Positions 47,750-63,300 of a stretch of 64,000 nt of DNA are shown here, piece after piece; position 1 is the stretch's first letter, and every line of letters begins with the position of its first letter. The DNA lies in the NCBI GenBank assembly GCA_000182565.2, contig KQ257461.1; one strand, 5' to 3'. The notes beneath the pieces are model-generated. The model had not been told where the DNA came from. It worked only from the letters and a program-made list of their open reading frames with translations, and did not search any database. Source of the stretch: Spizellomyces punctatus DAOM BR117. Taxonomy: Eukaryota. A program made the translations under genes and the position numbers.

Positions 47750-50700
47750 TGTGCTTGCGGCCTCATAAGTATTCTTGCCCACATGCTTATGTGGTTGGAT
47801 GAATGAACGAGTGGCTAGTGGAACGATGATTTCTTTCGATGAACTTTGCGAATGCTGAGTTGAGGAACCTGAAGGACCTGAAGAATCACGATATATGTCG
47901 TTTGGTGGCCATTAGCTCAATCGTCCTATGAGCTTGACACCGAGCGCAGAGTATTGATGGATGCGATGGAAGCGTGCACCTGTGGCCAATGTTTACATCT
48001 TAGACTCGCAGTGCCAGCTGCAACTCTATTTTCAGGACGATTTGCCAAATCAGTGGGCCATCTGAGGTCTATGCTGGTGTCTCCAACACCCCTTCCGTTC
48101 GTAGTAACCCGAGGAAGTCCGCTTGCCTCTGATGCATCTTTTAGGAAGCAAGTAAGGTATAAGCTTGCACTGTCGCTTAACGCTATAACAGTCAGTGTTC
48201 ACCTCTCGTGACATTGCGTCTGCTCGTCGTGTCTCGCTTTCCAGTGAGCTTCTGTGTATTCATCTGTTATTAACATCTCTGGCAACACTGAAGATCTGCG
48301 GGTCTTTTGACTCACCGGAGCTTGTGAGCTTCTTCCTTATATGTCTTAACTCTTGTTTTCAAAACTTGTAATTTATTCTTGAAGAGGGTCTGGGACTACA
48401 GGCCGTGATTCAGCTGAGAGAGAGTCGCAGGCTCTGAAAGTCATAGCGTTTTACCTTGTCCAGCAAGTCCTCCAGCTCTCTTGACTTATCCGCTAATTTC
48501 TCCTTTTCCTTGATAAGCGCCTCAAGCTTCTGGGTGAGGTTGGTTTTTTCTTTGCTCCAAGTAGACTTGAAAAAAATGATCTACGCATCAGTGTCGAGGA
48601 TCGTGTGGGCTAGTTTCTCACTCAAAGTGGCTAACATACACGATAGCGTTCTGCATTATGGAAGTAGGCCTCGCGCTCCTTCTCCATCTGTTCAGATATT
48701 TGCGCCAATTGACCTTGAAGTGACTGGAGTGCCGCTTCTGTTGACGCGAGCTTCTCTCTAAGCATGCAACAATAAGTAATCATGAACATGCCAATGTGAT
48801 GCAATGTCATTCACTGGTACCTCAAAACCTCTTCCCCCTTCCTTCGCAGTGCTACATCTTTATTGAGTTCAGCTGTTTGCGCTTCAGCTTCCTGTATGGC
48901 TTTTTTGAAATGGTCGATTTCAGCTTGCAGACGCTCAATCTGGGCTGTGTTCTCCATTCGGGCTTGTGCCAATGAATCATTTTGGGTTTGAAAGGTGCGA
49001 ATGGTTTGCTTGAGGTTTGAAAGTTCCTTAATCGTAAACATGAGTTCCGTGAAGAATAAGCTTGAAGCGGGGTATGAATGCCTACCTGATGCAGATCCTT
49101 TTCAGCGGAATCACTCAAAGCTTCCGCTTCGGTATTTTTTTGTTTAACATCCGCCAACTGTTTTTCCAGCTATAATAATGTTGAAAATTTGACATTAGGT
49201 TTGAGTGGATATTTGACTATCAACTGTTGCAGCCCGCCCTGTGCTTACATCGCATTTTTGAGATTCGAGCTGTGACCGCTTTGCCCATTCCTCCTCCCTC
49301 GCCAACCTCAATTTCTCAAGAAGGTCTTTCTCACCGTTGGATACACGATCACGAAGCGACTGTATAGTTTCGTTTGCTGTTTTGAGGTGACTGGTGGGAG
49401 CGAAGATTAGGCAATGCGAGGCGCTGATGATTGGTTTGGTAGTGCGCACCTTTCAAGCTCGACCACCTTTTCTTTTAGATCGTTGATCGTGTTCTCAAAT
49501 TGATTACGCTCTTTGAGCATCGACAGCTTCAAGTCACTCGTTTCAATCCTGCCATTATCAATTAGGTCTGTACGGAAGATCCATAATAGGGTAATACACG
49601 TACTTGACAGTATGCAGATTCTCTTCAAGCTTACTTCGGACTTTATTCAGGTCCTTTGTGAGAACAGCATTCTGCTCTGTGACTTGATCAAGCGTACGGA
49701 GGGTTTGCGTGGCTTCGTTTTCCATAGACGCTATCTGGTCAAATGCCCGTTGGCGTAAGCTGCAAACATTATCATACCATTTGCCCAATTGCAATTACAA
49801 ACCTGTGTGGCCAATGCATCTTTTTCAGCATGCAATGTTTTCGAATGTGCAACCTCGTCTATGAGCTTTCTCTGGTGGATGCGGGCTTGCTGCTCATAAT
49901 CGACCCGAAGTTTCTCTTTCTCTGCTCTATTGTCGAAGATTTCGATGAGGTACATGTCTGGTAATACCGAATACAAGCTCGACATACCTCAGTTCCTCAT
50001 TCTCGGGGAGAAGGGACTGCACTTTGAGCTGTAGTTCAGCGTTCTCCCTTTGGAGCTCGCGGAGTCGCTTGGTGTCCATTGAAGAATCTTTTTATGCAGT
50101 CCGTTTATATTACTATCCGCGGTTTAGCATTCCTGGCATCCTGTCCCTTACCGAGACATTGTCGCAGTTCCAGCATACGAGCTTCAAGCGCCGCCATCTC
50201 GTCTTGATACGATTGTTCCATGTCTTTTAACTTGGACTCTAGTTGTGCACGCTAAAAGTAGATATTAGCACGTTTCGCTAAGTTCATTCTGATGGAGCAT
50301 CATATACCTCACGTTCGATATCAGTTTTGGCGACTTCATGATCCCGCCGCAAGGCATAGTACATGGAGCGGTACTTCTCTGTTTCCTACCTCATCAGCGT
50401 TAGTTTTCCACCTTTTACGTACTTATCCAGTAGGTCAGGCGTGTGCAATTACCTGTTTTAAGCCCTTTGAGCGCTTCTCATTTTGCTCCTCCATTTCCTG
50501 TACAACTTTAAGGCGGAGGATTTCCAAATCTCTGCATATCACATATGTGGATCAGGACCCCTTTTTGCATGACTGTAGCGGGCACATCAACTAACTTTGG
50601 TTGTGGAGCTTTGGAACGGAATTCTTCTAGCTCCCGGGATTTAGCGTTAAGTTGTGATTTAAAGAGTGATGTTGATTCGCTTATTTGAGCCTCTAAAGCT

Positions 50701-51020
50701 GTCTACTCTCCAATTTTGTTAGTTAGTTAACCGCAAATTCTCGTGAATGGGTGCTCAGAATGTGATAGCACAACCTTCTCCTTAACCGAGAGATCATATT
50801 CTCGACTGAGGGTCTCATATCGCTCTTGAAGGCGCTCATGGCCGTTTTTAAGCTGTAATGGCGACGTTGTTCAATTTGGTTCCCGAAACATAGTTGGCTC
50901 TTTCTGTGACCTTACGTGTTCAAAATTGTCTTTATATGCCTCATTTTCTTTCTTGAGAGTCTCCACAAGTGATAAAGCAACTTTGAGCTTTTCAAGTACT
51001 GCTTCTTGCGTTTCCGCCAT
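47750..51020 (-). CDS. Long coiled-coil protein, many exons (3' end approximate)
   Basis: Heptad-rich E/K/Q/L exons starting MAETQEAVLEKLKVALSLVETLKKENE, separated by short GT-AG introns. Confidence 0.7.
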
Positions 51021-51290
51021 ATTTCTTGTTGTTAAACCGAACCCTGGCTGGTGCAGCGTGAAGCTGCTGCGCACACATAACGCAGCGACGCGTTCGTTGA
51101 TTACATAATATCGAGGTGAGGGCTCATCCTGCGATCAATACTCATGCAACACCAGGAGCTCTCCCATTAGTGAGCATCAGTACGTCTCCATAAGACTTCG
51201 AACATACTGCTTGAACTACCATCTATAGCAAGAACGTTCGTTTGGTGATGGGGGGAAAGATGCACATTTGGAGTTTGAGATCACTACATA

Positions 51291-52020
51291 GTGTGGAGGC
51301 GATTGAAAATGGCACTAGGACCCATTATTATCCGGATTAATCCGGTTAATCATATCGCATAATCAGAACCCCCCTCTATCGCTCTTGGTGTGGCATGCAT
51401 GTAATGTTTTTTTTTAAAATTGCGATGTGGTGCATGCCAAAGGTCTATAAAAGGGGGGCCTTTTCCCTCTTTCCTCTTTACCCATCCTCGACTCTCAAAG
51501 CATCTGCACAAATGCTCATTGCGACCCACATTGCAACTCATTGCGACTCGGTCAACCATGAGAATGCCGATGTGGTGGTGTCGAGGACCTCGACCACCCA
51601 ACAGCAACCGTGATCAGAACCAGTGGCAACCAATCGGATCCGATAACAGAACCTACTATTACGCTGCCACATTAGTTGAGCTTGGTTGGTATGTATCGAT
51701 GGCATTTCTTGCATTTCTTGTCATCGGGTCATCTTCTGACATGCAGTTTTTTTCTCTAGTCTCCAAGCCTTGTCACTGAAGATCCTCCAGCTTACGAGTC
51801 TCCCCAATATTGTGAAGACTCTGGCTTCAATGCCATCAAGAGTTCTGGATCAAGGCCTAGTAGGGACTGCGTGTGGTGGTGGGCAGTTATCCGGTTAGAA
51901 CAACCGTTACGTATTGCGTGTATAATTGCCTAGTAGTAGTTAGTTAGCTTTTCCGAACCAGTTGTCGCCGGTTTATTCCCTGGTGTAGTAGCTAGTGCCA
52001 GTTTCTGTCACCTAATACAC
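51291..52020 (+). mobile_element. Non-autonomous Fanzor-family 'ghost' TIR element without Fanzor ORF
   Basis: Flanked by CATA (51287-90) and TATG (52021-24). The left end GTGTGGAGGCGATTGAAAATGGCACTAG matches the reverse complement of the right end at 22/29 positions. It shares the GTG...TGGCACTAG frame with the Fanzor element TIR. Confidence 0.85.
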
Positions 52021-52037
52021 TATGTATTTCACCTGTA
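51948..52037 (+). ncRNA. Diverged omegaRNA-like scaffold (51948-52022) plus predicted guide TGTATTTCACCTGTA
   Basis: 44/54 identity to the first 54 nt of the scaffold at 56798, the same 75-nt length, ending in CACTA. Guide length assumed to be 15 nt. Confidence 0.75.
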
Positions 52038-52115
52038 CAGGGATGCAGAGAATACGCATCATCATATGGGCACGGGACACAAACGAGAATTCTCGGCTAC
52101 TGCTACAGTCTAGCG

Positions 52116-53254
52116 CTATTCCTCTCTGGGCTGCAGAATGGAATCTGCCTCACTTTGCAAAATGGCCGCTTCATCTCCATAACGCTTTGGATCAACCCTA
52201 CCCTTCTGCTTCATCTCTTGGGACATCAACTCAGCTGCTTTGGCTTTCTTTTCAAGCGCAATTTTGACCTGTTCCTTCTTTGGTAGCTCCTCGACTTCTT
52301 CATGCGTTAATTTTGCAAGAGCATCTCTGATCTTTTTCTTTTCGCCTTCTTTCATTTGATTGACATCAGCGATCGCCTCTCTAGCACCCTCCGATGGAAC
52401 TGGAAGATTGTCTTCATGCAAGGCAATCCGCGCAAGGGACTCAATAATGGCTTTCTCGGGTCCGGTGTCAAGATTTTTGCCACCATGGACCTCGGCAATG
52501 TGCCTTAACATTCGGTCAGCTTCGCTCATGAGCTTGGAAGCAGGGGAATCTTTGTCGACGCGGCCCTTTTGTTTCATTTCGCGGGACATTAGCTCACGGG
52601 CCAACTCCTTCTTGGCAATTGCCTCTTTGATCTCTTTCATGACGGGATCGTCTCGCTCTGGGAGTCCCTCAGCCTTTCTCTTCGCCTGTCTCGCACTCAA
52701 TACTTCATGCAACATTTTTTGCGCTTCGCTCATAAGCTTCGAAGCTTCGCTTCCTTCCTCCGCTTTGAAAACTCTGCTGTGAATTGAGTCGCGCATCTCT
52801 TGTGACATTTGATCCTGAGCATGGATCTTCAACTCTATGGCTTGGGCGACAGGGGTCTTCTTCTTATGAGCTGGTGATTCCGTGTGAAGAGCAATAGCCT
52901 GTATTGGGCACGTCAGAATCTGCAATGAAAGGTGCTCCGGTATGGAGTACAGCGAACCTATGATCTCACCTGCATATCGTCAGCAATATGCTTTGCGCGA
53001 TCTGCTGCACTCTGCGCAACCGCCGCAGCCGAATCCTTGGGAATGACCCCACCGGTAACAGCAGCTGTCCTTGCCTCAAGTTCTTTCGCATGTCGCTGCA
53101 TACATTGAGCGGTCAATTCGGCCTGAGCAGCGTTGGCCATTTGTTTGTGTTCTGGAAGTTTGGCGATTCCTTCAGCAACTGCTTCGTCCACGTTGGAAAC
53201 TTGGGATTTGGAGGTCGTCTCGTTTTGTTCCTTCGAACATGCTAGGGTACTCAT
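52116..53254 (-). CDS. Hydrophilic helical repeat protein, LEA/seed-maturation-protein (SMP)-like, 2 exons
   Basis: Repeated motif DSAAAVAQSAAD / GSEASKLMSEA / DSPASKLMSEAD / DEAAILQSEAD; rich in A, E and K. Confidence 0.7.
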
Positions 53255-53994
53255 CCTTCAAAACTATGCGCTATTTGCGCAATACTGCAGGTGCCCTCAC
53301 CTTGGCGTCCTTTTTCACCTTCCATTTCGGATTATAAATGTGCAAATCTTATTTACAGCCTTCACGGCAAGTTTGACAGTTGGTAGGGCAGAAAAGATTC
53401 GCTGCGAGAGAGCTCAACTGTTCTTTTAAGTTCGTATTTTGAGCTTATATTACTCAAGGTTGGACACCTTTGTAGGAGCCTTTCTCCAGCTTCCGTATTT
53501 CAGAAGGCGAAGTTACTGACGGTCGGCTGCCTTTACACTACTGTAATACTGACGCCAATTCCAAGTGACCAAGGCTCACAGAAATTACCATCACGTATAA
53601 GAATCCACTGAATAGTCCATGTCTGCCATTACGTATCAAAGATATCGTGACTATTTCCCAAGGACCCTTGGGCTTGTCTGAGTCCTTTTGACGTGTAGAA
53701 GCAGGAACTCTTACAAAAAAGGACGTCGTGCATGAGAAAGGTTCCAATGCGGTGCTTCTTGCAACGTCGTTCAAAGCAGACGTCCACTTTCAATGTTATG
53801 GAGTTGACATTGATCAGACATATTTAGGCTACTCACAACGCGATGACATTATACACTATCCGTACCATATATACACTTTCAAAATAATCTTTGTGTTCTG
53901 CCTCATTGTCAGGTAACGGTAAGAGACCGACACAACAGTAGCAGTCTTCAATTACAAAAGCAATGAAAAAAAAGCACAAGATGAGGTGGGGAAG

Positions 53995-54076
53995 CGACAC
54001 GAGCAGGATTTGAACCTGCGCGGGCAGAGCCCAATAGATTTCTAGTCTATCGCCTTAACCACTCGGCCATCGTGTC
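53995..54076 (-). tRNA. tRNA-Ser(AGA)
   Basis: 82 nt; acceptor GACACGA/TCGTGTC, anticodon arm ATAGA-CTAGAAA-TCTAT, long variable arm GGGCTCTGCCC, T loop GGTTCAAATCC. Confidence 0.96.
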
Positions 54077-54825
54077 AGGTGAATGACAGAACAGGTATTT
54101 GCAATATATTCCTTGTGATATTCTATGCTCATCTGCTTCCCAGAGGCTGGCTCTAGGTAAGGCTCGTTGCAAGGAAAATTGTCGTGGCTGTAAGTTGACA
54201 TGAAGGAGTATGAAATCGCACTTTCGGGCGTTGCAGATACATTGTTGATATTGGCACTTCTCACATGTCGCCATTATCAACTATTATCATAGATGTGAAA
54301 GCAATGTTCGCATAGAAGGAGGACAGTAAAAGCAAGAATGAGCCACCTCGGTGCTAGCAGATCTGCCTCTCGTTTGGAGCACGATATATGCTCTATGAAA
54401 TTATGGCTTCATGTTTTTGAGACGAGCCTTAGACGTTGCGAGAAAGCCATGCTGAAAGACAGACTCCAATTTAGTTGACACTTGATCGAAAGCATAAGAC
54501 ATGGTAGATTTCATTGATGATTCGGATGATTTGGAGCCAATTATGTTGAAGTTATTAATTGGCATTAGCTCCGTCCATCCAGGATACATTGATGATGTCC
54601 ATGAACTTTGGAGAATAGGTTCAGCACCTTTTCTGATGGTTTTGTGTTAAAGAAAGTACGCAGTTACTTGCCGATGCTTCATGGGAACAAGATTTGGCCC
54701 AGTTCTCAACCCTTGTACATAGTGCGGAGCCGATGGGTATTGGCACTAGTACAAAGATTCCAACCAATTTAATCATAATTTTACTCGATTTAGACTCATG
54801 AACTATGGTTTGATCCAAAAAGTCC

Positions 54826-54832
54826 TATATAA
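54826..54832 (+). promoter_or_regulatory. Putative TATA box of the Fanzor gene
   Basis: TATATAA starts 57 nt upstream of the ATG; its context is similar to that in the ghost element (51446-51452). Confidence 0.5.
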
Positions 54833-54882
54833 GTTGTCGGGCCCATTTTCCCAGGCTTTCGTCTTTTTCCACAGATATCATC

Positions 54883-56783
54883 ATGCCACCAAAGAAAAAG
54901 CAAAAACTCGAAAAACTCGACAAACCTACTTGCTTACATACCTGCAACAAGACTTCCTTTGCAAAAGCTTTCCTGCCAAACGAGATCTACCGCCAACGGC
55001 TTCTAGATTACATTGCCATGATCCATCAACTTGCTGACCATGCTTCCCACACTCTCAAATTCTACATCCTATCTGCACCATCCTTCACCGTAAACGAGGA
55101 GACCATCGAAGCAATTCTCTATCTTCTCAACAAAGGAGAGGCTTGGCAACCAAAAACTGATGCGAAAAGGGCATTGCGCGAATGCTTGCTGCCCTATGTC
55201 CGACGGTACTGCCACATCGTCGGCTTCGTTCATCCAAATCTACAAAAAGAGCAGCAATCAGTCAATTACCTGACAATGAGTATGATGACGAACCTGAAAG
55301 TCAACGTCCAAGAGCATTTCATGCAGATGATCCTTCGGTATATCAATCTGCGGCTTGACGTGAAGGGACGGAAAGGGCAATTTCCTCCAAAGAGTGAAGC
55401 GCGAAAAGCTTTCTTTGCTCGGCTACGCTACTTGAAGTCAGTTTTCCTTTTCGAAACAATGCCAGAATCGCTGGATGACTTGAGCATTCTTGAAAACGAG
55501 ATTTTAGAAGAGATCTGGACACTTAACCTGCCATTTCCTGATCAAGACAAGCCGCTTGCCTACCTCATTGCCATCGACGCGATGTCCTTCTTGCCTGCAT
55601 ACTGCAAACTCTCCCGCTCTATGAGCATCATGGATTTCGATGGTTTAGCGCCATACCTCTTCGCCGCTCCCTCATCCAAAGCCATATACGCATTGACACC
55701 GTCATCCTCTATTCTCATGTTCTTTGCATCCCCCGCAGACGCAGAGAGGCAGAAGCCATAGAGAAGGATGATCTGTGGTTGCGTGTCTGTAATCTACGTA
55801 CCAAAGCTTTTCAGTCTCGCCGCAGTATGCAGTTTGAAGGCTCGATCACGACGGACGGAACCTCGGTGTCTGTATACCTAAAGCACCCCGAAGCAGACAA
55901 GTATGGAAAGCGCGGAGCGAGAAAGTCAGCAAAGACTCTAGAAGCTGAGGTGAAGGCAGTATATGTGGAGAACAACTTGCCTGCTTGTCGAGCAGCAGAA
56001 AATGTCGTCATTATTGACCCAAACAAGCGCGACCTTCTCTACTGCCAAGACAGCAATGGTGCGACGATGTTTCACTATACCGCCAATCAACGCTGCAAGG
56101 AGACTGGTAGCCGGCGATTTGCAAAGGAACGGCAGCAGATGAAGAAGGAAGCGGGAATGGACCTTATAGAATCGCGAATACCATCTCACAAGACGATGAA
56201 CCTCATGGATTTCCTCCGCTACCTCCTCGTCCGTTGTGTCGACTGGAACCGCCGCAAGGACTTCTATTCGCATCCTGCTCATACTCGATGGAAATGGCAC
56301 TCCTTCATAAACCGTCAGAAGAGCGAATCAGACCTCATAAGTAACATGCGCAACAAGTACAGTGAAAACCTTACTGTTGTAATGGGTGATTGGAGCGATG
56401 CCGGTCGAACTGCAAGATTTCAGACCTCATCAAAGACAAAAGGCTGGCGCACCCTCTTTAAGCGCAACCGCATTGATTGTTTCCTTCTCGACGAGTACAA
56501 GACCTCATCTGTTTGCCCTCGCTGTTCCTCATCTGAGTTTGTGGAGAAAAAATTCAAAGAACGACCTCATTCAAGACCTTATCGACAACGAGAAGGCAAG
56601 ATTGAAAAAGTCCACGGATTGCTGGGTTGTACCAACCCTAACTGTTTGCAGCAAGCCTGGACGATGCGCTACTGGAATCGAGATACGCTGAGCACCTGCA
56701 ATATGCTAACGATCGTGCAATCAATGTTGGATGGACACGGTAGACCAGAAGTGTTCAGCAGGAGTGTTCCAGCCGTAGCTTAG
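54883..56783 (+). pseudogene. Fz1: Fanzor1 RNA-guided RuvC endonuclease (SpuFz1-like), split by a 1-nt frameshift near 55617
   Basis: N-terminal NLS MPPKKKQKL; RuvC motifs IIDPNKRD, LLDEYKTS and NRDTLS; Zn finger CPRC..CTNPNC. Adding one base near 55617 gives a continuous 633-aa ORF. Confidence 0.92.
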
Positions 56784-56797
56784 ATTGGTTAGATTAG

Positions 56798-56887
56798 GTT
56801 TTCCGAGCCGGTTGTCGCGCGGTTCAATCCCTGGTGCGGGTGCTAGTGCCAATACCCACCGGCTCCGCACTATGTTACCAAGTCTGT
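56798..56887 (+). ncRNA. Fanzor omegaRNA: 75-nt scaffold (56798-56872) plus predicted guide TGTTACCAAGTCTGT
   Basis: Starts 14 nt after the Fanzor stop and overlaps the right TIR. Stems GAGCCG/CGGTTC, GGGTG/TACCC and TGGTGCGG/CCGCACTA. Matches my recollection of the SpuFz1 scaffold. Guide length assumed. Confidence 0.88.
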
Positions 56888-60384: not shown

Positions 60385-63300
60385 GAAAAGTGTGAAGATT
60401 ATGTATAGTTATTCAGCATATTCCATAGATCGCCGACCCCAACTCGGGTCACTGGCGCACTAGGCATGTAGTTAGCAGAGACGGTTTGAGTGGAAGTAGT
60501 GATACAGCTGTAGGAAGGAACGATTTTGCGCGTGGATATGGTCAGGTTCACGTCGTATCCCTCGGCTGACGCATATACAATAATGGAGCTGTTTCTGTCA
60601 CTACCTCGTTCATCTCATGTATCAAATCTCATAGCCCTCAATCTGAAAAGACTATAGAAGAGTGCAAAGCATGGCAGTTCCATGTATAATTGTTGCTACA
60701 TTTCTTCCTTTTTTTTAAAAGAATAACTCTTTTATTTTACAGGCCCTCCTCCGGCCGGAGCCAAGAGGCACCCCCACCGCGGTGAGTCGTGGCCGCCGCT
60801 CCACCATCGCGACAGTCAGTCCTGTTCAACCAAAGAAGACAAGTGGAGAAGACGAGTAAAGAGAAGGGGGAGGCGAGAAACGTCGCCTTTTTATAACCTT
60901 GGGGGCCTGCGCTTTTTTTTTGTAATCCGGAATTCTACGCGGAAGATACCGTATCCCGCGTACGTCATTCTTTTGAGCACGCCATGAACGCCCAATCATC
61001 GTCGTCGTCGTGTTCACCTCCTGGCATGCGTTCCCCCTTGCGCGAGTCAAGATCATTTGTTTATGTTCATTTTCCCACGGTCTCGAACAAGCGAGATTCG
61101 ACACATTTTGGGATGCTTGTTGGTAGAAACAAGAATATCGGGTCTTGTTTTCAGTTGGTTTATCTAATCCAAGAACAACGAATGCAAACACGTCATGAAA
61201 CCGTAAAAGCACAAGCGAGGTCACTGTTCGGATCTCCAATGCTTGCCCGCCGCTTTTGTCGGATGTAGCGTCAGCGCAGTGAAAAGCGTCAGACTGACGA
61301 ATGTAGAGATTGAAAGAGCGATAATAATAGGATACGATCGGATGGTTGTATCGCCAAATGTCAGAAGACAGTGCGCTGGGATGCACAACATGCTGTTGGT
61401 CTTATATGCCAGTATAGCCAATCGCTGTATCCACTAACAATTTCATGCTGTCGAGAATAAGGTTAACATCAACTCCAATTGCAATCCAGTGTCCTTGGTT
61501 TCCAGTTCACGTAAAAACAATTGCGACATGCTAATTCATCGCGACCCACCTCAAGCTCTCTGCTCTCTCGGTTGGATGGACCAAATGGTGACAACAGATC
61601 AGGTCTGTCTCTAGATTCACGTCTGTTCCGAATGAAAAAGACGTTGAATTTGTACGCATAGCTTGGAGGAATGCGTTTCTTACTCAAGAATTTTGTCATT
61701 AGTGAGGGTACTCAAAAGTCTACAGGCGTGGCAGCTTGCAAGCTATTTGAATAGAGAATGCAAGTCATCTAAACTGAGTTGATACAATGCTGTCAGATCG
61801 GAAAGTCGATGACCGTGCGCATCGAGGAGTGTTTTTGTATTCATCGAAAATATCGTCAAGTGCGGGTTGTTCACTCTCTTGCGGCCGCGGTATTCAAATA
61901 ATGCATTAGGTGAACCAAGACAGGGATACTGCATGACTGATTCTCGGACATCTTTGAGCATGGCTTGATCGGTGTGGTCCAATATATTAGATTTCTCGTT
62001 TAAGACGAGCAAGTTTATCCGAATAGAGGGTCAGTGTTTCTCAACCTCGGCAGAAACTGGCGATGAAGAAGGGGATATTGCCAGATCCATTACATGTTCT
62101 TGTGGGAGATGGTTGCTCCCATTTGACTGACTATATACACATATGCTAATTTCCTATTCGTCTTTGCTAATATCCGTTTAAATGGCCATCACCCATGGAT
62201 ATACATGTTCTGCTGCCTATTCTTTGTCTTGTATGTCATCGTATCAAGTCTCAGTAGTGTAAAAGGCTTCATTTGTCTGTAAATCGCATCGAGACAGAGT
62301 TCACACAATGGCGTTCATCGGTTGGCGTCGGAAACCCTTCTCCCTTAAAGACATGACCTAAATGACCTCCACACTAAAAATATTTTAGGTAAGAAACTTG
62401 AGATTTGGTCCGAAACTGTGTCCTTGAACATACATTCGAACAAACAATCTCAGTGCGCTCCATTCCATACGTATTGTCGACGTGACGGGTCACGGCACCG
62501 GGTATGGCGTCTGAGACATATGCATGGTTTAGGTTGAAAGGTGAACACACTGTTAACGGAACAACACAAACCAACCAAAGAATGCTGGCCATCCACAACC
62601 GGAATCAAACTTTGTGCTTGATTTATATAAGGGTGCATCGCATCCAGCACAATGATACACACCTATGGTGGTAAAATGTATGAACACTTTGGACGTACAT
62701 TCAACAGCAAAAGTAAACATCAAGAGACATACCGTCCGCCTTATGCTTATTGTACTCTCCCGTTCCAGGTGCTTCGGTCCCCTTCTGCCGTAGCACGCGG
62801 AATTGCTCGGGCGTCAACTTGACTCTCCACTAAAACGTAACGCTCAGGAAAAGAAGATAGATCAGACAAAACGAGCAACACTTACCTCTTGGTCTGTTTT
62901 CGGTAAAGACATGGTAACAGTGCGGAAAAAGAAAGAACGGGTGAGAGGGAAGATGCGAGTGCGATGCCAGAGTGGTCGTAAAAACATCACCAAAAGTGCA
63001 AGTGTCCCATTGCTTGTTCAAGTCAGCGACGTGGCTGATCGAGGTGAGTCATGTCATTTACCTTTATTAGGTCATTATTACCCCACTCCCCTCCAGGCTT
63101 CAAATGAACGGCCAAGTCCTTCCTTGGATGTTTGGAATGAAGGTCTGCACTTTGATGGACATATTGATGATGTTGTATGGAAGGGGCATAACCCCTATAG
63201 TAGATTTGAGATCTGTTCTTTTTGCTGATCCAAGGAACCTGTGCCCATGCATCAGCACATTGTAAAAGGGCATCCTTTCTCTGCTTTTTTTTGGTATAGA

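Follow-up and report, generated by a model that had tools for sequence, protein, structure and literature searches.

Ghost Spu-1 element and its Fanzor neighbour

The window, meaning the whole 64,000-nt stretch of Spizellomyces punctatus contig KQ257461.1 that was analyzed, contains two related elements on the + strand: a ghost Spu-1 element and, 4.8 kb away, a Spu-1 element with a SpuFz1-type Fanzor (Fz) gene (Table 1). Ghost Spu-1 loci in S. punctatus number 134, compared with 42 Fz loci (Saito et al. 2023, Nature 620:660, PMC10432273), and the ghost element of the window is already in print. By eye, 51945-52090, which includes unique flanking DNA, is an entry in part 15 of the ghost-locus file (file 7) of PMC10432273. 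The scaffold at its right end was likewise recognized by eye as gst99/gst112 in Supplementary Data 1 of PMC13434818, where the ghost scaffolds gst1-gst126 were clustered and some of them assayed (Chen et al. 2026, Nat Commun 17:7701). The Fz locus, again with unique flanking DNA, is an entry in the Fz-locus file (file 6, part 21) of PMC10432273, and its scaffold is identical to the published 75-nt SpuFz1 omegaRNA scaffold (supplementary file 4 of the same paper). Nucleotides are numbered here on that scaffold, with nt 1 at 56798, A75 at 56872 and the guide from 56873. This numbering fits all nucleotides named in the structure section of PMC10432273, namely U5, C6, C7, U16-G22 and A29-C34, and also U35, G37, C40, G70, A72, A75 and U76.

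Table 1. Features of the two Spu-1 elements and of the DNA between them (window coordinates)
Feature	Position	Strand	Remarks
Conserved CA before left repeat	51287-51288	+	With the first TA of the repeat, CATA, the SpuFz1 TAM
Ghost Spu-1 element	51289-52022	+	734 bp, inverted repeats at both ends, no nuclease gene
Ghost left inverted repeat	51289-51318	+	30 nt, TAGTGTGGAGG...GGCACTAG; blastn to Fz repeats, four-end comparison
TATA-like box	51446-51453	+	TATAAAAG; conserved in published ghost loci
Spliceosomal intron	51689-51759	+	71 nt, GTATGT...CTGAC...CTCTAG
Ghost omegaRNA scaffold	51948-52022	+	75 nt; homology to canonical scaffold, RNAfold, published lists
Ghost stem 1	51955-51960 with 51969-51974	+
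Ghost stem 2 core	51981-51987 with 52016-52022	+	TGGTGTA with TACACTA
Ghost right inverted repeat	51992-52022	+	31 nt, 1-nt insertion; contains the 3' strand of stem 2
Self-pairing of ghost repeat	51993-51998 with 52017-52022
Putative ghost guide	52023-52037	+	15 nt of flanking DNA, TGTATTTCACCTGTA; by position (75-nt scaffold plus 14-15-nt guide, published)
Spliced mRNA	52008-53449	-	RNA contig, run X5; exons 53449-53301, 53241-52969, 52897-52008
tRNA gene	53995-54076	-	Between both elements; Rfam RF00005, 64 bits, E 1.4e-12
Fz left inverted repeat	54720-54749	+	30 nt; CA before it at 54718-54719
SpuFz1-type Fanzor1 gene	54883-56783	+	Two reading frames; 1-nt deletion at 55615-55616 relative to solved SpuFz1
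Canonical SpuFz1 omegaRNA scaffold	56798-56872	+	Identical to the published 75-nt scaffold
Fz stem 2 strands	56832-56838 with 56866-56872	+	TGGTGCG with CGCACTA
Fz right inverted repeat	56843-56872	+	nt 46-75
Self-pairing of Fz repeat	56844-56849 with 56867-56872
Putative Fz-locus guide	56873-56887	+	TGTTACCAAGTCTGT; by position

The ghost element is the same thing as the ghosts of Saito et al., with CA before the left repeat, a right repeat overlain by the 75-nt scaffold, and conserved sequence in between (PMC10432273). Its left junction reads ...CACTACATAGTGTGG; the CA motif and the CATA TAM are treated in sections 7 and 8 of PMC10432273. Over 37 nt, the left end (51285-51321) matches the left repeat of the Fz element at 81%, and the right end agrees with the Fz repeat at 79-83% (blastn), and an identical left end recurs among the published ghost loci (PMC10432273). 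No Fz coding remnant was found in 50500-52600 with both Fz pieces as tblastn queries (best E 4.2), and the inner 73-aa ORF had no Pfam family at E up to 0.01. The window holds only the two scaffold copies, and their flanks diverge past the first three bases, TGT. Within the ghosts of Saito et al., the window copy belongs to a small variant group with a CTAATACACTA 3' end (gst9, gst99 and gst112) and with A·C and G·A mismatches; this variant was not found among the scaffolds reported as tested.

The left end of the ghost has its own counterpart in the published lists, as its reverse complement (51289-51363, - strand) is, by eye, gst87/gst90 of PMC13434818. When the 126 gst entries were sorted by eye, 68 were left-end reverse complements, 38 were right ends, 13 were of a third type and 7 were others. 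About half of the published 'ghost scaffold' set are accordingly left ends read backwards, a point not found in the main text of Saito et al. The left-end entries that were assayed still gave some editing, with values of about 7-11% for gst7 and about 18-20% for gst98, the canonical scaffold reaching about 37-43% (PMC13434818 source data). The word TTATCCGG followed by CCGGTTA is present near the left end (51328-51348) and again at 51887-51897, ~55 nt upstream of the ghost scaffold.

In the neighbouring element, large reading frames at 54814-56783 match the S. punctatus Fanzor 1 chain 8GKH. Residues 24-269 of one piece (P0002) align with residues 395-646 of 8GKH_P (E 1.6e-120) and residues 25-413 of the other (P0001) with residues 645-1032 (E 3.6e-233). 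The pieces cover the solved chain end to end in different frames, and no intact full-length ORF is present. At 55615-55616 two bases replace the Gly codon between CKLS and LYE of the solved protein; the frameshifted copy is either a pseudogene or the product of a sequencing error. Neither the two Fz pieces nor the neighbouring 287-aa ORF, which belongs to the - strand mRNA at 52008-53449, had a Pfam family at E up to 0.01. The two ends of the Fz element are alike at 94% over 36 bases.

The 3' end of the - strand mRNA that begins beyond the ghost element is antisense to the guide and to the 15 bases at the 3' end of the ghost scaffold. A further site at 62902-62925 (-), CCGCAC-TGTTACCATGTCT, is similar to the right end of the Fz element with its guide (CCGCACTA-TGTTACCAAGTCT); it lies where a gene begins, at the start codon, and is not preceded by CATA, and the likeness is probably due to chance.

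Fold of the omegaRNA scaffold and paired substitutions

An earlier note on this DNA had reported that base changes in the ghost scaffold preserve the pairing of two helices, and all of its letters and coordinates were correct when both copies were read again. The Fz strands TGGTGCG and CGCACTA correspond to U35-G41 paired with C69-A75 and form the base of stem 2, on the side near the protein. This stem shows two double substitutions from the Fz to the ghost copy, C40-G70 to U-A and G41-C69 to A-U. The 5' hairpin, stem 1, still pairs in the ghost (GAACC at 51955-51959 with GGTTT at 51970-51974); here G10·U26 has become A-U and G8-C28 has become G·U. The ghost copy also breaks the adjoining pair in each stem, G13-C23 becoming A·C and G42-C68 becoming G·A, which was absent from the earlier note. 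A third hairpin, GGGTG/TACCC, which had been described as not conserved, occurs in neither the published nor the predicted fold: the partners of G41-G43 are U67-C69, and the loop is CCAAUACC (nt 52-59). The published trimming series, in which stem 2 is removed pair by pair around this loop, confirms the pairing of stem 2.

Identical letters were found in 54 of the 74 aligned columns of the ghost and Fz scaffolds, the other 20 differing, and the ghost scaffold ends in CACUA followed by a variable guide. RNAfold gave the same two-stem fold for both copies, with -28.9 kcal/mol for the Fz copy and -15.9 kcal/mol for the ghost, and weak z-scores (-1.9 and -1.5, respectively). On the canonical structure 38 of 42 cells are paired (90.5%), and the succession of stem 1, six-nt linker and stem 2 is present, with two core pairs broken in the ghost. 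Compared with the SpuFz1 omegaRNA in 8GKH, the ghost has the same two-stem design and is identical at nt 2-9, 11-12, 14-21, 23-27, 29, 31-39 and 71-75, which include every named protein contact. It differs from that RNA in a loop 1 that is one nucleotide shorter, in a rebuilt distal stem 2 and in the swapped pairs 40-70 and 41-69.

Within the terminal repeat, UAGUGC (nt 47-52) is complementary to GCACUA (nt 70-75), and this pairing could compete with stem 2. With A70 in the ghost, the rival repeat helix consists of five pairs and a C·A mismatch, and stem 2 keeps U40-A70.

Neither scaffold matched a family in Rfam 15, in which the only real match was the tRNA. A tRNA-like nature of the linker was rejected, as aragorn found no tRNA in either scaffold. 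Metagenome matches to a 16-nt degenerate linker/stem 2 word were also set aside as chance, none of the 120 listed being omegaRNA-like beyond 18-23 nt; five of these 120 loci lay in tRNAs.

Paired changes across published copies

Taken by themselves, the two copies in the window show no significant covariation, hardly more than would arise by chance. A shuffle control, in which 124 of 500 shuffles did as well, is uninformative with two sequences. Sliding the stem partners gave no double change at five offsets and two at one offset. Neutral simulations were fixed at the observed transition and transversion counts, and the probability of at least two double-compensated pairs was 0.016 for the well-aligned core with uniform rates and 0.11 for all columns. 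It was 0.06-0.11 when CpG sites changed 5 to 10 times faster.

These last values bear on the possibility that chance and mutation bias produced the pattern, CG to TA decay on facing CpGs of the helix mimicking compensation without selection on the RNA. All four bases of the double substitutions are indeed CG to TA transitions in CpG dinucleotides, the family copies show about two transitions per transversion (273 vs 137, X3 counts), and the ghost breaks the two other pairs noted above. However, CpG decay is weak in the window, where the observed/expected ratio of CpG is 0.90 (0.71 in the ghost element). A change from CG to TA moreover takes two hits per dinucleotide, of which CpG drives only the first, and other scaffold types keep the pairs by other letters: U40-A70 with G41-C69, C42-G68, U42-A68, and the U·G/G·U of gst22. 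We therefore regard this account as unlikely.

The letters of these other types come from the copies published in the supplements, which were tallied by eye and not by program. Among 26 word matches in the Fz-locus file, 22 were complete Fz-type scaffolds, and one each was cut by N, ghost-type, diverged and unrelated; C40 G41 / C69 G70 was present in all 22 complete Fz-type scaffolds. The right-end ghost scaffolds (39, from the 126 gst entries and ghost1) had U-A/A-U in 35 cases, U·G/G·U in one (gst22) and one mismatch in three (gst65, gst105 and gst113). The diverged scaffold, GGUGUGCG...CGCACAC, has U40-A70, has kept G41-C69 and has C42-G68 swapped; it thus mixes both states, as a stepping stone between the Fz type and the ghost type. 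In a further type (gst23; file 7, parts 71 and 74), GGUGUAUUG...CAAUACAC, the pair 42-68 is U-A. The combinations read by eye over the published copies are C-G, U-A and U·G for pair 40-70, G-C, A-U and G·U for pair 41-69, and G-C, C-G and U-A for pair 42-68.

In stem 1, the 38 ghosts that have this stem carry pair 13-23 as G-C (29), A-U (6), G·U (1) and A·C (2, one of them the window copy). The association between the two positions gave a Fisher P of 6.7e-5, which is no true probability as the copies share ancestry. Variants at paired positions that occur in at least two copies kept the pairing in four cases (A13 with U23, G10, C28, A8) and broke it in two, both of which occur in the window ghost. 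Those confined to a single copy kept it in three cases and broke it in seven.

The reading of the earlier note is borne out in part: the helices are real and are kept across four scaffold types, and the window pair alone is not significant. As the four types keep them through different letters, the comparison speaks for selection on the fold. The differences are fixed between lineages, which leaves a small number of independent events (about three or four). On the basis of these tallies, it is likely that selection acted on the RNA fold in spreading copies and was followed by neutral decay in single insertions. The double substitutions would then be fixed differences between the Fz-type and ghost-type lineages that keep stem 2 continuous.

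Possible contribution of the inverted repeat

The caution already given in the earlier note, that the 3' strand of stem 2 is also terminal inverted repeat, is right, as the 30-nt repeat spans nt 46-75. A counterpart of the A70 change is present in the ghost left repeat (TAGTGT...), so a constraint at the DNA level, or parallel CpG decay, may have a share in pair 40-70. The counterpart of U69 is mostly absent from the left ends: the left-end word 'catagtgtg' was found 13 times and 'catagtgta' three times as unsplit matches in the ghost-locus file, and the left-end gst entries mostly read CCTCCACACTA. The 5' strand of stem 2 lies outside the repeat, and there is no partner word for it at the left end. 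Pair 41-69 is accordingly better explained at the RNA level.

Extended to both pairs, a DNA-level constraint would mean that the co-change was set by a transposase or by a DNA hairpin at the right end, and not by the RNA. It would accommodate the overlap of nt 46-75 with the repeat, the near copy of the inner repeat word TAGTGC in TGGTGCG, the presence of A70 in both ghost repeats, the self-complementarity of the repeat, and the seven positions at which ghost and Fz repeats differ (PMC10432273). We consider it very unlikely nonetheless, in view of the 5' strand (nt 35-45) that is not repeat, the lack of a mirrored U69 in most left ends, and the observation of the helix as RNA in the solved complex; in addition, no transposase is known for Spu-1 according to PMC10432273.

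Regions of the scaffold needed by SpuFz1

The cryo-EM work describes stem 1, the A29-C34 linker and stem 2 in the SpuFz1 complex, with protein contacts at U5-C7, loop 1, the linker, U35, G37, A72 and A75, and states that C40-G70 makes no contact with SpuFz1 (PMC10432273). An active 52-nt scaffold retains only pairs 35-39/71-75 of stem 2, pairs 40-70 and 41-69 having been removed (PMC10432273). With gst28, perturbation of the C40-G70 region had no significant effect, whereas perturbation of U31-G37 strongly cut activity, as given in the peer-review file of PMC13434818; activity in the Chen set is mapped to U31-G37, and not to C40-G70. The 75-nt scaffold outperformed the 52-nt one by 1.26- to 1.94-fold, and did so in only some settings (PMC13434818).

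The earlier note had concluded that the compensatory changes mark the helices needed by the protein, and had suggested mapping the changes onto the SpuFz1 structure. Mapped through the published text, C40-G70 falls outside the protein contacts, and the covarying pairs 40-70 and 41-69 are the protein-free helix of stem 2, dispensable in the published scaffold. The protein-contacting pairs 35-39/71-75 never vary and the contacted nucleotides are invariant between the two window copies, so that covariation cannot mark them. It is true that stem 1 and the base of stem 2 bind the protein and are conserved between both copies. As an account of the covariation, however, protein need is scarcely credible, given that the two pairs lie outside the contact zone, are gone from the active 52-nt scaffold and belong to a region that tolerates perturbation, and given that the contacted pairs never vary. 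Since mutation and trimming in this region had no significant effect on editing, a benefit of the helix formed by pairs 40-70 and 41-69 is unproven. The likeliest cause of the double substitutions would be selection that acted, in the spreading source copies, on RNA folding or stability. Protein contact is not the likely cause, as it is at these pairs that the part of stem 2 starts which is free of protein and dispensable in experiments.

Transcription, TATA-like box and intron of ghost elements

RNA run X23 was aligned to the region, and reads were counted from 80% likeness, so that the counts apply at the level of the family. The GT..AG joint 51687->51759 was crossed by 921 reads on the + strand and 5 on the - strand (first mate); the joint indicates a spliced + strand RNA, with the first mate in sense. 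Mean + strand first-mate depth in five bins over 51200-52169 was 116, 291, 936, 35082 and 2595, with 6-100 on the - strand, and the depth at the Fz scaffold was 193 and 43 in two bins. Partial fits made up 172335 of the 180165 aligned reads, which therefore come mostly from other family copies and are not attributable to this ghost locus. Family-level + strand reads cover the omegaRNA region, mostly as partial fits.

In 5917 reads of the same run, the sequence leaves that of the window after 51987 and continues with TTGTGTTGTGACATTT, which is the gst23 scaffold type. These reads agree with the ghost copy through nt 40 of its scaffold (A41 in canonical numbering). The gst23-type scaffold with its rebuilt distal stem 2 thus seems to be strongly expressed.

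The splice joint lies downstream of the TATA-like box, and both features recur in the published loci. The word 'tataaaag' was found 43 times in the ghost-locus file; of the five places listed, two share the context of the window copy and three are unrelated. The file keeps the intron-bearing form, with 33 matches of 'ggtatgta' and 28 of 'tagtctcca', and no intronless ghost was seen among the 10 junction-word places listed. A promoter and a spliced intron belonging to ghost elements were not found in the main text of Saito et al., in which the words 'intron', 'TATA' and 'spliced' are not present. Processing to about 88-90 nt would be expected of a SpuFz1-type omegaRNA, the published small-RNA data being from Fz loci (PMC10432273).

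Discussion

The locus, its class, the comparison of RNA folds, the function with SpuFz1 and the regions needed are already known from print. Predicted folds of canonical and ghost omegaRNAs are compared in Fig. 3e and Extended Data Fig. 3c of PMC10432273, judging by their legends. A literature search for Fanzor, ghost and Spizellomyces found only Saito et al. 2023. No word beginning with 'compensat' occurs in the main text of PMC10432273, whose supplementary PDFs may say more, and none beginning with 'covaria' in that of PMC13434818. In the Fanzor structure paper PMC11423790 (Cell 2024), a search by term did not find ghost, stem 1, stem 2, covaria or pseudoknot. As the literature covers the system without the wording of compensation, the explicit pair-by-pair account is a small gloss on a known system. 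Its value as a discovery is small, published mutagenesis having already shown which parts the nuclease needs, and it carries a caution: covariation does not equal protein need.

The ghost scaffold resembles the reRNA/omegaRNA of TnpB (IS200/IS605, ISDra2) in being a guide RNA encoded at the right end of an element, with the guide taken from the flank. Unlike the TnpB omegaRNA, that of SpuFz1 has no pseudoknot, the host is eukaryotic, and the ghost carries an intron and a TATA box. By analogy with TnpB, a function in retaining the transposon has been proposed (PMC10432273).

Ghosts could, more ambitiously, be self-contained RNA polymerase II guide-RNA cassettes and not passive remnants, the conserved TATA box and the efficiently spliced intron yielding an omegaRNA precursor. 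Ghost RNAs, including those of the rebuilt GGUGUAUUG...CAAUACAC type, would then far outnumber the RNAs of Fz loci, and the covariation in stem 2 would reflect selection on native processing or stability, which human-cell editing assays do not measure. We put this forward tentatively, as a possibility that is rather doubtful at present.

As a whole, the locus is probably best explained as a published ghost Spu-1 element, derived from the SpuFz1 Fanzor transposon, with an omegaRNA that is loaded in trans, its paired substitutions having arisen by selection on RNA folding or stability and not on protein contact. We hypothesize that a TATA-type promoter within the element drives + strand transcription of a precursor that is spliced, and that the 3' part of this precursor would become an omegaRNA of roughly 90 nt with a guide derived from the flank. 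SpuFz1 encoded by intact copies at other sites may take up the ghost omegaRNA in trans; the Fz copy at a distance of 4.8 kb carries a frameshift, so any protein must originate from other copies. The omegaRNAs of Ghost1-4 work with SpuFz1 in human cells (PMC10432273), function with SpuFz1 is also published for several gst scaffolds (PMC13434818), and this particular ghost copy might be used in the same way. The loaded complex would cut CATA-flanked DNA that matches the guide. An empty site would show just such a CATA with a guide-matching flank, and cutting there could favour retention of the element in the manner of TnpB, by analogy. The authors of PMC10432273 suggest that ghosts widen the guide repertoire in trans.
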